64,000 nucleotides of DNA from contig OY969557.1 in NCBI GenBank assembly GCA_963701025.1, positions 801,953 to 865,952 of the forward strand. The letters run 5' to 3'. This stretch comes from an uncultured bacterium. GTDB taxonomy: Bacteria > Patescibacteriota > Minisyncoccia > Phycocordibacterales > PALSA-1337. Shown here piece after piece: positions 22,624-58,089 of this stretch. The notes under the pieces are model-generated. The model saw nothing but the letters and a program-made list of their open reading frames with translations. It was not told where the DNA came from and ran no database searches. The first letter of the stretch is position 1. Every line of letters starts with the position of its first letter. The position numbers and the translations under genes are program-made.

Positions 22624-23436
22624 ATGGCCACGCTCTATATCGTCGCTACGCCCATCGGAAATCTGGAGGACATCACCCTTCGGGCTCTTAAAGTTTTGGC
22701 CGCTGTCGATGTCATTCTCTGCGAAGATACGCGGATGACCGCCAAATTGTTGGCGAGGCACGGCATTTCAAAGAAGACCCTTTCATATCATATGCATAGC
22801 AAGCTGTCGCGGGTCGAAGAGATCATCGGGTTCTTGCGGGAAGGTAAAAATTTGGCCCTCGTCTCCGATGCTGGCACGCCTGGCATTTCAGATCCCGGCG
22901 CGGAATTGGTGGCGCGGATACGGGAAGCTTTTCATATGAATATTGGTGCCGCGTCGCATTCTCATTCACTCGGAGGACCCTCTCTTGGAGTGGTTGATGA
23001 AAGTGTCAAGAAAGTTGACGCTTTTGACTATACGGTAAAGGTAGAGTCTGTCCCCGGTCCATCCGCCATGACAGCGGCGCTCTCAATCGCCGGTGTCCCA
23101 TGTGCAGATTTCACATTCCTCGGATTTCTGCCGCACAAGAAGGGAAGGGAGACTTTATTCAAAGAAATAGTCGCTTCCGAACGCACCATGGTATTCTATG
23201 AATCGCCTCATCGGATCATGAAAACGCTCGAATCGCTCGTCGCGCACCTGCGGCCGTCTCTCTCGGAAAGTAATGCGCAAAGCAAAAACGCAACCCCAAA
23301 AAAAGTCACCGTGTGCCGCGAATTGACTAAGATATTCGAAGAAGTCGTCTCTGGGACGGCGGAGGAGGTGAGAAGCTATTTCAAATCCCATCCTGACAAA
23401 GTCAGAGGGGAGTTCGTGGTTATAGTGAGCGCATAA
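22624..23436 (+). CDS. rsmI: 16S rRNA (cytidine1402-2'-O)-methyltransferase RsmI carrying an internal ~35-aa insertion
   Basis: LYIVATPIGNLEDITLRALKVLAAVDVILCEDTR N-terminus, tetrapyrrole-methylase fold. The insertion (MNIGAAS...VKVE) coincides with a dispersed palindromic repeat. Confidence 0.75.
   Translation: MATLYIVATPIGNLEDITLRALKVLAAVDVILCEDTRMTAKLLARHGISKKTLSYHMHSKLSRVEEIIGFLREGKNLALVSDAGTPGISDPGAELVARIREAFHMNIGAASHSHSLGGPSLGVVDESVKKVDAFDYTVKVESVPGPSAMTAALSIAGVPCADFTFLGFLPHKKGRETLFKEIVASERTMVFYESPHRIMKTLESLVAHLRPSLSESNAQSKNATPKKVTVCRELTKIFEEVVSGTAEEVRSYFKSHPDKVRGEFVVIVSA
23000..23040. repeat. ~41-bp imperfect-palindrome dispersed repeat, copy 1 (inside rsmI)
   Basis: AAAGTGtCAAGAAAGTTGACgCTTTTG followed by actatacggtaaag. 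Similar copies at 27428 and 58045. Confidence 0.7.
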
Positions 23437-23470
23437 TGCTTTTCGGGGGATAAGGTTGGTGTATAAAAAT

Positions 23471-23500
23471 CCTCCGTTTCAGCCTGTGCCTAAACGGAGG
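23471..23500. terminator. Bidirectional hairpin CCTCCGTTT...AAACGGAGG between convergent genes
   Basis: 9-bp stem between rsmI (+) and the 23490 gene (-). Confidence 0.45.
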
Positions 23501-23852
23501 GTCTTGTCTCTTGAAATGTGATCTCTTCGATGAGGGATTCGATTATCCCTTTGTCCACCTCGTCGGAAGAGAGGATTATCCTGTCTCCTAACCTCGACAG
23601 GAATTCCCTCTTATGCGGACTATGCTGTTTGACGACATTGCATCCATCGAATTCGAATGAACATCTCGGCTGTAAAGTCGTCGGATGCCATCCGCGGGCG
23701 CTTGGATCGTTTTCAACGCCGACGATAGGCGCAACACCGATCTTCAGCGTATTGCCCGTGAAGGTGCATTCGGCGACTCGGCCGACATACCTGTCGTTAT
23801 TGATCGTATGGAGCCAGCAACAGGCGTAAGACTCCGGTATTTCTTTTTTCAT
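23490..23852 (-). CDS. Hypothetical protein
   Basis: ORF only. Confidence 0.3.
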   Translation of the reverse strand: MKKEIPESYACCWLHTINNDRYVGRVAECTFTGNTLKIGVAPIVGVENDPSARGWHPTTLQPRCSFEFDGCNVVKQHSPHKREFLSRLGDRIILSSDEVDKGIIESLIEEITFQETRPSV

Positions 23853-23911
23853 TGCAAATAGCCTCTTTTTAGCGGTTGGCCCTTGTTTCCTAGCATTATC
23901 CTAACACCTCG

Positions 23912-24181
23912 TTGTATAATGGCCAAGCTATGTCAAAACGCCAAATAATCATGATACTCGCCGCACTGATCATCGTCATTGCTCTTTTTTCCGGTCTTCC
24001 GTCCTGGTGGGATACGGTGCTCTATGTCGTCATGGCATTATTCATCATAGTGGCCGCGTACCTCATGAAGCCGGCGTCCGCCCCTGTCAAGCCGGCTGCG
24101 CCGTACGTCGATCACACCCCAGTCGCTCAAGCTCCTGAAACATCGACATCCGCCACTGAAGATACGTCGCCACTGCCTTGA
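23912..24181 (+). CDS. Small membrane protein
   Basis: Two predicted TM helices. Confidence 0.35.
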   Translation: MYNGQAMSKRQIIMILAALIIVIALFSGLPSWWDTVLYVVMALFIIVAAYLMKPASAPVKPAAPYVDHTPVAQAPETSTSATEDTSPLP

Positions 24182-24182
24182 A

Positions 24183-56479: not shown

Positions 56480-57727
56480 ATGAAATTCAGCATCATTGCT
56501 CGCGTTCACGGTTCGCTCGCTCGTGCCGGAAACATTGAGACCATTCACGGCACCTTGGAGACGCCGGCCTTCATCCCCGTCGCCACCAAGGCCACGGTGA
56601 AATCCCTCACACCCGAGCTGGTCAGCGATGCTGTGGGCGCCGAAGCGGTCCTGGCCAATACCTATCATCTCTATCTGCAACCGGGCGCCGAAATCGTAAA
56701 AAATGCCGGTGGCTTAGGTAAGTTCATGAATTGGGACGGGCCGACCTTCACCGATTCCGGCGGTTTCCAGGCATTCTCGTTGGGTACGACGAAAGGCCGC
56801 GCGAACAAGATCGCCGAGCACGGAAGCAGTGTCATGATCGGTGTCGCCGAGGATGATCTTACTTCCCACCAATCCCTCGCCCGCGTAGACGACGATGGCG
56901 TGACCTTCAAGTCTATAATAGATGGTTCGGAACATCGTTTCACTCCGGAGAAGTCCATCGAGATACAGCATGACATCGGCGCCGATCTCATATTCGCTTT
57001 CGACGAATGCTTGTCGCCGCATGAATCATATGAAAGACAAAAAGCGGCAGTCGAGAGGACGAGAGTATGGGCAGAACGATGTCTGGTGAAGCACAAGAAA
57101 TTAGGGCATAGGGTAGAGGGTAGAGACTATGCCCTAAACCCTACACCCTCGCTTTTTGGCATCGTCCAAGGAGGCAGACATGAAGACTTGCGTAGAAAGA
57201 GCGCGCGCGACATCGGCGGCATGGTCCTTCCGGATGGGACGGCCTTCGACGGCTTCGGCATAGGCGGCTCGTTCGACAAGGATGATATCGGCACGGCGGT
57301 CAGATGGGTCTGCGAGGAATTGCCGGAAGACAGACCGCGCCATCTGCTCGGCATCGGCGAGCCGGAGGATATGATCCGCGCCATAGAGAACGGCATCGAC
57401 ACTTTCGACTGCGTGGCACCGACTAGGCTGGCCCGGAATGGCGCGGCGTACGTTCGGCCGTCAGCCGAAGCCACCAATGGCCGGCTCAATCTTCTCAATC
57501 TGCGTTTCATCGATGATCTTAGCCCTCTTGATCCGGAGTGCGGTTGTTATACATGTAAGAACTACTCTCGCGCATATATCGCTCATTTGTGCAGGGCAAA
57601 AGAGATGCTGTCGGCGACTCTGCTTTCAATACACAACCTCTATTATCTCGTTAACTTGGTCAAAAAAGCGCGCACGGCCATCATCAAAGGGAAGTGGGAA
57701 GAATTTCGTTCCCGTTTCGCTGTCTAA
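56480..57727 (+). CDS. tgt: Queuine tRNA-ribosyltransferase with an in-frame ~17-aa insertion encoded by a repeat element
   Basis: TDSGGFQ active site and C-terminal zinc site [17 protein letters not shown]. The insertion lies at 57101-57152. Confidence 0.8.
57101..57152 (+). repeat. GGGTAGAG-family repeat with hairpin TTAGGGCATAG...CTATGCCCTAA, in-frame inside tgt
   Basis: ttagggcatagGGTAGAGGGTAGAGactatgccctaaaccctacaccctcgc. Confidence 0.7.
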
Positions 57728-57736
57728 TCAGCTTTT

Positions 57737-57997
57737 TCATTTGAGTCGTGCGATATTTCTGTCCACATAGTCGAGTTTCCTGTCGTACATCCATAGGTAT
57801 CTTTTTCCGGAAAGGACTTTCCGCGTGAGACCTCGTTTTTCGAATTTCCTCAGAATATATAGGGCGGTTGATCGAGGAAGTTTTGCTTGACTGGCGATCG
57901 CTGAAACGCTTCTGGCCATTTTAAGGCGCAGAAGGACGTCAAGAAAGGCACTCTCTTTTGGTGACAGATCCAATATATTTCGTAGAGGTGGAAGCAT
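57737..57997 (-). CDS. Small winged-helix transcriptional regulator
   Basis: 86-aa HTH pattern (LPRSTALYILRKFEKRGLTRK). Confidence 0.45.
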   Translation of the reverse strand: MLPPLRNILDLSPKESAFLDVLLRLKMARSVSAIASQAKLPRSTALYILRKFEKRGLTRKVLSGKRYLWMYDRKLDYVDRNIARLK

Positions 57998-57998
57998 T

Positions 57999-58023
57999 GG
58001 GGGGAGGGGGGAGAGAGAGGAGA
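57999..58023. repeat. Homopurine tract GGGGGGAGGGGGGGAGAGAGAGGAGAC
   Basis: Seen directly; it encodes the LPPLPP start of the minus-strand regulator. Confidence 0.8.
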
Positions 58024-58044
58024 CATATCATTGTATCACTTCCC

Positions 58045-58089
58045 AAAAGTGACAAGAAAAGTTGCCACTTTTCCCAGGCATAGCAAAGG
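58045..58089. repeat. Palindromic dispersed repeat, copy 3 (intergenic, ~50 bp upstream of the wHTH regulator start)
   Basis: AAAAGTGACAAGAAAAGTTGCCACTTTTC then ccaggcatagcaaagg. Confidence 0.7.

Follow-up and report, generated by a model that had tools for sequence, protein, structure and literature searches.

A short hairpin repeat dispersed in coding and intergenic DNA of Patescibacteria, traced from three copies in one 64-kb window

Rickettsia palindromic elements (RPEs) are repeats of about 150 bp, of which 44 integrations have been described, nearly half of them in-frame within open reading frames (ORFs) (Ogata et al. 2000, as cited in PMC10969869). They are the closest analogue, in kind and not as members of the Rickettsia sequence families, of the element described here, a hairpin repeat with three copies in a 64,000-nucleotide stretch (the window) of the 876-kb contig OY969557.1 from an uncultured bacterium of the Patescibacteriota. 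Patescibacteria have tiny, gene-dense genomes, and their repeats, their regulation and the origin of lineage-specific insertions in their core proteins have been almost unstudied. The core of the element recurs in public genomes and metagenomes, both between genes and inside unrelated genes, where it is read in one frame only. On balance, we consider it probable, with modest confidence, that the family is a non-autonomous hairpin repeat of Patescibacteria resembling RPEs and repetitive extragenic palindromic (REP) sequences.

The three window copies share a palindrome of 25-26 bp, AAAGTGWCAA-GAAA(A)G-TTGWCACTTT, in which 10-bp arms surround GAAAG or GAAAAG. In what follows, W is the genome of the 64-kb window, c1-c3 are its copies, L001-L053 are public loci and P numbers are clusters of RsmI proteins. 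The copies and their coding hosts are as follows.

22624..23436, + strand: rsmI, the 16S rRNA C1402 2'-O-methyltransferase gene, with a TP_methylase domain; host of copy 1.
23000..23024, + strand: core hairpin of copy 1, AAAGTGTCAA-GAAAG-TTGACGCTTT, with one U.G pair; in-frame in rsmI, encoding (E)SVKKVDAF.
23025..23039, + strand: 3' extension, present in copies 1 and 2 of the window genome only (TGACTATACGGTAAA vs TGCATATACGGCAAA); RsmI orthologs differ here.
26884..27783, + strand: frame of the C-terminal low-complexity tail of a TraD/VirD4-like coupling-protein gene; host of copy 2.
27419..27443, + strand: core hairpin of copy 2, AAAGTGACAA-GAAAG-TTGACACTTT, with an A.A mismatch at the covarying pair; encoding (Q)SDKKVDTF.
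58046..58071, + strand: core hairpin of copy 3, AAAGTGACAA-GAAAAG-TTGCCACTTT, with a 6-nt loop and one A.C mismatch; intergenic.

Copies 1 (23000-23039) and 2 (27419-27458) lie in direct orientation and are identical at 35 of 40 positions. The 27-nt pattern has two matches in the window, these two copies, vs 0.00 expected from 100 dinucleotide shuffles. The core of copy 3 matches copy 2 at 25 of 27 positions, with an extra loop A and a single A>C change (within-window E=0.004), and the loci orthologous to it in L017, L022 and L046 carry a perfect core, which identifies copy 3 as a true member of the family. The palindromic repeat in three copies that had been proposed from the letters alone (the sequence-only reading) is borne out by these comparisons; of the positions it gave, 23000 is exact, and 27428 lies 9 nt from the true start at 27419. 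Its placing of both coding copies in one frame also agrees with our results, since the codon phase is identical ((23000-22624) mod 3 = (27419-26884) mod 3 = 1) and the translations, ESVKKVDAFDYTVK and QSDKKVDTFAYTAK, correspond. Four of the five nucleotide differences between the two copies alter the amino acid, which points to conservation of the DNA and not of the peptide.

Public collections were scanned with the pattern AAGTGNCAAGAAAN{0,1}GTTGNCNCTTT, which has 21 specified bases and for which about 0.5 chance matches are expected. The core was found in 44 public loci, 15 from species-representative genomes and 29 from metagenomes, so that the further copies expected of a true repeat do exist, in coding as well as intergenic DNA. 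All named matches belong to Patescibacteria (Saccharibacteria, Paceibacterota or 'Patescibacteria group') except one Sphingomonadales contig (L004) and one Chloroflexi contig (L007/L036, encoding 'ASGKKVVTL' in a WD40 repeat), which were taken as chance or convergent matches given the expected number. Most of the distant genomes of the candidate phyla radiation (CPR) carry only one or two exact cores, whereas metagenome samples related to the window organism carry many more. The intergenic copies represent about 14 types of site; most follow a stop codon by no more than about 130 nt, often where two genes converge. Covariation is seen at the seventh position of the arm, GTGTCAA..TTGACAC alternating with GTGACAA..TTGTCAC, and mixed A.A and A.C states also occur. 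A scan of viral contigs for the core gave 0 matches, and a profile of the element peptide run against 5.8 billion proteins gave 21 candidates, none with E<=10. Our literature search found no paper with the core sequence and no account of such repeats in CPR. To our knowledge, the half-sites and arrangement of parS, matS and CIRCE are unlike the core. One intergenic copy, in L038, lies directly downstream of what looks by eye like a HicB/HicA-like toxin-antitoxin pair (483-967).

An explanation of the uptake-signal type was rejected, AAAGTG/CACTTT not being over-represented in the window (40 observed vs 31.6 expected). The same hexamer forms 'everted' palindromes, CACTTTA-GTYAAG-TAAAGTG, at window positions 16384-16408 and 13504-13528, both coding and 88% complementary to each other; such palindromes also occur about 50 nt upstream of the cores in L010 and L044. 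A Mur ligase gene (13969-15429) contains a perfect 9-3-9 palindrome, GATGACAAG-AAA-CTTGTCATC, at 14074-14116 on the minus strand, encoding DDKKLVI; its likeness to the family is weak (nhmmer E=0.26), and it is probably native coding sequence.

Coding copies occupy eight independent sites in seven unrelated gene families:

RsmI: the window genome, L018/20/41, L025/33, L049 and L050.
TraD-like low-complexity tail: the window genome, L024, L041 and L050.
Leucyl-tRNA synthetase (LeuRS): L019/21.
Valyl-tRNA synthetase (ValRS): L027/39.
Glutamyl-tRNA synthetase (GluRS): L015.
ABC-F ATPase: L035.
tRNA-dihydrouridine synthase (Dus), in two different loops: L001 and L003.

All of these copies, which lie in long ORFs, are read on the sense strand and in a single frame, AGT GTC AAG AAA GTT GAC ACT TT., giving S(V/D)KKV(D/V)T(F/L). 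Exclusive use of one frame, although others are open, and the hydrophilic character of the peptide and its position in loops would fit selection at the protein level for a short interaction or targeting motif, S-V-K-K-V-D-T-F/L, with the palindrome as its by-product. However, the compensatory change in the arms turns SVKKVDT into SDKKVVT, which is the opposite of what selection on the peptide would produce, and many copies are intergenic. By the V/D swap and the intergenic copies, such a peptide motif is largely refuted, and the behaviour of rsmI described below, with its frozen synonymous sites, makes it more improbable still; we give it almost no credence.

Comparison of orthologs shows presence and absence of the element at several sites. 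The ValRS of L039 is 12 residues longer at the site than that of L008, to which it is 67% identical. Dus of L001 and of L003 each lack the copy that the other has. Where L024 and L041 have the copy in the TraD tail, L025 shows a clean gap of 16 codons. LeuRS and ABC-F are only about 5 residues longer than their solved homologues in the Protein Data Bank (PDB), and in these two the element rather resembles a patch within a variable loop. The sequence-only reading had offered, as one possibility, a tiny mobile palindromic element tolerated in-frame, and in essence our results agree with it: dispersal in-frame over many unrelated genes and presence or absence between orthologs (ValRS, Dus, TraD tail) are observed, and mobility would be the step from these patterns to a process. 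Copy 2 is orthologous to the TraD-tail copies of L024, L041 and L050. Its location on the opposite side of a VHQPFK block from that in L024 and L041 had suggested a new insertion, which was rejected when the flanks of L050, L041 and L024 showed orthology with local rearrangement of the tail. The whole TraD/VirD4-like gene (25910-27783) contains five frameshifts (0>1>2>0>1>2) relative to the intact 643-residue ORF of L041, so that it is either a pseudogene or affected locally by a series of indel errors in the assembly.

The rsmI copy allows the closest comparison, and it lies in a segment that most homologues lack.

22930..23034, + strand: 35-codon segment of rsmI, residues 103-137, missing in E. 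coli RsmI and most CPR RsmI; the core is close to its 3' end.

Residues 1-102 and 138-269 align with E. coli RsmI (5HW4), leaving 35 extra residues, and about 105 of the 120 closest RsmI clusters have at the insert site a fixed 24-residue segment, e.g. AELVARIRRECVDEIANGALKIEA. Ortholog alignment therefore confirms the non-canonical insertion in RsmI that the sequence-only reading had suspected. The eight closest clusters have 42-60 residues there, containing ES(V/D)KKVDTF, while among orthologs the left part of the insert differs freely in both sequence and length; the closest named homologues are from Ca. Taylorbacteria, Minisyncoccia and Pacebacteria. In four orthologs with 75-79% protein identity to the window RsmI, all seven third-codon positions of the core are identical, whereas outside the core the third base is kept in only 55 of 182 codons for identical amino acids (30%). 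The chance that all seven core codons would keep their third base is 0.30^7, about 2e-4.

In sister clades, the peptide has drifted while a hairpin is kept. The RsmI clusters P0017, P0024, P0083 and P0105 have SDENFRRF, SDENSRHF, SDKNFRHF and SDDDCHHF at the core position, and the DNA of these four sister-clade clusters (L051, L047, L052, L053) again folds into a hairpin, which spans the same nine codons. All retain the outer stem AAGTGAC/GTCACTT, and the inner stem changes by pairs: pair 8-21 alternates between T:A and A:T (A.A in L050) and pair 10-19 between A:T and G:C (A.C in L052), as counted by a script and not from the MAFFT alignment, in which a 1-nt loop gap is unplaced. What persists in these clades is thus the hairpin together with its outer-stem sequence, and not the peptide. 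Template switching within quasi-palindromes can also yield paired changes without selection. In L049 (724-846; RsmI cluster P0006), a 21-nt GC-rich perfect palindrome, CTGCCTGCCGGTCAGGCAGGC, is nested in-frame in the left arm of the core (ESV-LPAGQAG-KKVDTF); this lineage thus acquires small palindromes repeatedly.

Such constraint raises the possibility that the hairpin has been recruited by the host as a signal in cis, read as an mRNA hairpin or as extruded single-stranded DNA or a cruciform by a factor conserved across Patescibacteria. Possible roles would include 3'-end formation or stabilisation, control of RNases or a roadblock, and a chromosome-organising site, and the hairpin would have been planted in, or retained by, mostly translation-machinery genes. 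The frozen synonymous sites of the rsmI core and the compensatory swaps that keep its hairpin over a drifting peptide favour such a signal, as does the fact that the core sequence itself, not pairing alone, is identical across CPR classes. Its positions between scpA and scpB and upstream of a winged helix-turn-helix (wHTH) gene are conserved in diverged genomes. Most of its stem irregularities are U.G on the sense strand, and its hosts include LeuRS, ValRS, GluRS, Dus (at two sites), RsmI and ABC-F. ValRS has a twofold link to the core, which lies inside the coding sequence in L039 and L027 and in L008 follows the stop codon at a distance of 127 nt. This double association (L008 729-3150 vs L039 7026-9302) may be a coincidence or specific to the gene.

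The hairpin as a whole extends beyond the core. In the window clade, the element is an imperfect palindrome of about 80-110 nt, built of a G-rich arm, CACTT-N5, the core, an A-rich stretch and a C-rich arm. The outer G-rich and C-rich arms pair in L017, L025, L035, L003 and c3 of the window genome; the long hairpin of L017 has a dG of -50.5 kcal/mol (z -6.7), and the other four are similar. RNAalifold on 24 copies supports the core stem alone, with no covariation in that set. The centre of the element (loop) is inverted relative to its flanks in L032 compared with the orthologous intergenic copies of L028-31, and the whole wHTH-upstream element is inverted in the window genome compared with L017 and L046, so a strand-specific RNA reading is not conserved at these sites. 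L025 has lost the copy from its TraD tail, A.A or A.C frequently stands at the central pair, and paired changes by template switching would need no selection, all of which speak against a cis-acting signal. An intrinsic terminator was not called at copy 3, whose stem has 3-4 G:C of 10 pairs and whose T-run is part of the stem, and Rfam 15 gave no family at gathering or permissive thresholds, only sub-threshold snoRNA and miRNA noise. On this evidence, we regard recruitment of the hairpin as a cis-acting signal as possible and on the whole doubtful. The fuller proposition, a conserved Patescibacteria signal that a phylum-wide factor would read in mRNA or extruded single-stranded DNA, placed in the coding sequences and 3' regions of translation genes with the loop peptide as a by-product, appears to us unlikely.

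Copies within one genome resemble each other beyond the core. The outer arms are common within a genome and are not alignable across all copies. For example, the GGGGGAGGGACAT arm is common to the rsmI copy of L025, the wHTH-upstream copy of L017 and the ABC-F copy of L035, all of the Ga0182017/27 population. In the window genome, the right flanks of c1, c2 and c3 are alike (shuffling p 0.003-0.013), and the likeness includes GGTCCTCCGCCA of copy 3 and GGTCCATCCGCCA of rsmI, the latter encoding native GPSA. Such sharing of flanks within a genome, with no match in orthologs, indicates ongoing exchange between copies by gene conversion or re-insertion, that is, concerted evolution. CACTT stands on both sides of the left arm plus loop in rsmI and ValRS, and CACTT-N5 is found in nearly every copy, the filled and empty orthologs being too diverged; exact insertion boundaries or target-site duplications could not be fixed from the filled/empty pairs of ValRS, Dus, the TraD tail and RsmI.

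Dispersal over unrelated loci, the single frame, insertion relative to orthologs, constraint on the core DNA, compensatory upkeep of the hairpin, flips of the loop or the whole element and shared flanks within a genome are all observed. Together with the long hairpins and the usual placement of intergenic copies after stop codons, they suggest the following course for a non-autonomous hairpin repeat, the reading that we favour. The element may have originated as a post-gene hairpin of very low copy number throughout Patescibacteria, and may then have multiplied in the window clade and entered loops of housekeeping and essential proteins. Coding copies would be translated passively as a hydrophilic segment of the form Gly-rich...S(V/D)KKV(D/V)T(F/L). 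Spread and uniformity of the copies would result from DNA processes acting on the extruded hairpin, possibly gene conversion or template switching between or within copies, or a hairpin-specific enzyme of the HUH/Y1 type acting in trans. Selection for a harmless hydrophilic surface loop would filter the coding insertions that survive.

Several results weigh against a non-autonomous repeat of this kind. No transposase was found among the 30 window ORFs scanned with Pfam or beside any locus examined, and neither a clear target-site duplication nor, among close relatives, a clean pair of filled and empty sites was found. The rsmI, TraD-tail, wHTH-upstream and scpA-scpB copies are old and orthologous across species, so that they give no sign of recent mobility. 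Decay would be expected of old selfish copies, but the core is perfect at synonymous sites, which needs continued gene conversion or selection. Avoidance of stop codons does not by itself account for the use of one frame, since intergenic copies have further open frames. Alignment across all copies holds for the core only and not for the outer arms. Finally, translation-related genes make up six of the eight coding hosts, a hint of function or of biased targeting; this may reflect function, targeting to genes of high expression or the better retention of copies in genes that are essential.

The intergenic copy of the window lies beside a small regulator gene.

57737..57997, - strand: small TrmB/MarR-like wHTH gene of 86 residues; the element lies upstream of it here and in L017, L022, L042 and L046.
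57999..58106, strand not assigned: extended imperfect palindrome of about 105 nt around copy 3, filling nearly the whole spacer between the PfkB kinase gene and the wHTH gene.

Copy 3 lies downstream of the PfkB kinase gene and 49 nt from the wHTH start codon (57997), in agreement with the distance of about 50 bp first noted. The palindrome comprises a G-rich arm at 57999-58027, CACTT at 58037-58041, the core and a right arm, ATGTCGGTCCTCCGCC, at about 58091-58106. The homopurine tract that the sequence-only reading saw beside copy 3 is present (57999-58027) and turns out to be the G-rich outer arm of this palindrome. That reading offered an operator as one of two possibilities, and an operator of the adjacent self-regulating wHTH protein, with the coding copies as captured extra sites, would account for the dyad symmetry expected for a dimer and for the retention of the element upstream of the orthologous gene in the window genome and in L017, L022, L042 and L046 (53-59% identity), where the neighbouring genes differ. 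In the window genome, moreover, the left arm includes a -35-like TTGTCA spaced 17 nt from AATGAT, a weak promoter match that overlaps the arm; the promoter-bearing spacer of L017 and L046 is missing here. In those two loci, however, a near-consensus promoter, TTGACA-16-TAAAAT, ending 7 nt before the start codon, lies between the element and the gene, and the palindrome stands about 95 nt upstream of the -35 box, where an autorepressor site would not be expected. Most copies of the family lie in coding regions or after the stops of unrelated genes, and the distant CPR loci with the core have no such wHTH neighbour. Homologues of the wHTH protein are barely detectable beyond the clade, the homologue search having returned only the query and one relative. 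The operator is therefore not supported as the sense of the family, and we regard it as improbable; the wHTH-upstream copy is in our view a single member locus that has been conserved and does not explain the family as a whole. The two back-to-back TTGACA boxes were also considered as sigma-70 promoters, and this was rejected because manual reading of the flanks found no consistent -10 at 16-18 nt.

Copies 1 and 2 are accompanied in the window by an ATP-grasp gene, rsmI, a PrgI-like ORF, a DUF4015 glycosidase-like gene, the TraD/VirD4-like gene and glycosyltransferases. The region between rsmI and the TraD-like gene (23912-25385) holds the PrgI-like small membrane ORF and the DUF4015 glycosidase-like gene, and this order is kept in L041 and L050. 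A monoderm-type type IV secretion system has been described for Patescibacteria in the part of a preprint available to us (bioRxiv 10.1101/2025.01.22.634366), and the gene order in the three genomes is consistent with that system as outlined there.

A second repeat family in the window, of GGTAGAG heptads, occurs at 1287-1401, 57090-57150 and 59237-59258, as a hairpin insertion in the 16S rRNA gene, in-frame in the tRNA-guanine transglycosylase (TGT) gene and just upstream of the PfkB kinase gene; the TGT copy lies within a palindrome, TTAGGGCATAG...CTATGCCCTAA. The 16S rRNA match covers model positions 1-1533 in only 1168 nt (region 482-4077) and is followed by a group-II-intron-like D1-D4 match (1918-2030), an ORF for a LAGLIDADG endonuclease (1935-2525) and a helix-turn-helix ORF (3100-4077), and then by tRNA-Leu (4543) and tRNA-Ile (5032), indicating an interrupted or otherwise unusual rRNA operon. 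A 125-nt direct repeat (18505-18629 and 19013-19137) is 84% identical between its two units, which lie 508 nt apart among ORFs with no Pfam match.

The family is a concrete and traceable source of insertions in aminoacyl-tRNA synthetases and in rRNA- and tRNA-modifying enzymes. It also offers a natural test of the long-term upkeep of a nucleic-acid hairpin inside coding sequence, through frozen synonymous sites and compensatory swaps by which the peptide is rewritten. Should there be a trans-acting factor, the 25-bp core would be a ready probe for finding it in cultivable Saccharibacteria. If the hairpin were instead a cis-acting signal, the set of hairpins would amount to a 'coding-embedded regulon'.

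Among known systems, RPEs share with the family a non-autonomous palindromic build in a reduced genome, a distribution over intergenic sites and in-frame sites in unrelated housekeeping genes, an extra peptide compatible with the host fold and no associated transposase. They belong to another phylum, and homology of sequence to RPE-1 to RPE-10 is not expected. Furthermore, the conserved unit here is a core of 25-26 bp instead of about 100-150 bp, it is identical across Patescibacteria classes, its synonymous sites are frozen and its frame is exclusive, whereas the outer arms are largely specific to a locus or a genome. REPs and their bacterial interspersed mosaic elements (BIMEs), with the REP-associated tyrosine transposase (RAYT), are among the next closest systems and resemble the family as short (20-40 nt) imperfect palindromes of conserved sequence with orthologous copies kept across species; most intergenic copies of the family also lie just after genes, often convergent ones, and a hairpin-specific factor in trans is plausible. 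Unlike the family with its many coding copies, REPs are extragenic; no 5' tetranucleotide of the GTAG type was seen in the family, no RAYT gene was seen in the DNA examined, and most CPR genomes have only 1-2 exact cores. Transposable elements of the miniature inverted-repeat kind (MITEs) with in-frame copies, such as ERIC, BOX and Correia (PMC10969869), are likewise small non-coding repeats that form long hairpins and fuse in-frame with ORFs. In MITEs, however, conservation is highest in the terminal inverted repeats, whereas the conserved part of the family is its centre. MITEs also come with target-site duplications and a parent insertion sequence (IS), and neither a clear duplication nor such an IS was found for the family in the window and the loci examined. 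The palindromes of organelles, in Nematomorpha mitochondrial DNA (PMC6649704) and Volvox (PMC2670323), are, in the portions of these reports available, also hairpin-forming inverted repeats in protein and rRNA genes that apparently propagate themselves; as described there, they are organellar, much longer or GC-cluster-like, and unrelated in sequence. The family thus differs from RPE, REP/RAYT and MITE in having no termini conserved across all copies and in its tiny core, its phylum-wide identity and its exclusive reading frame.

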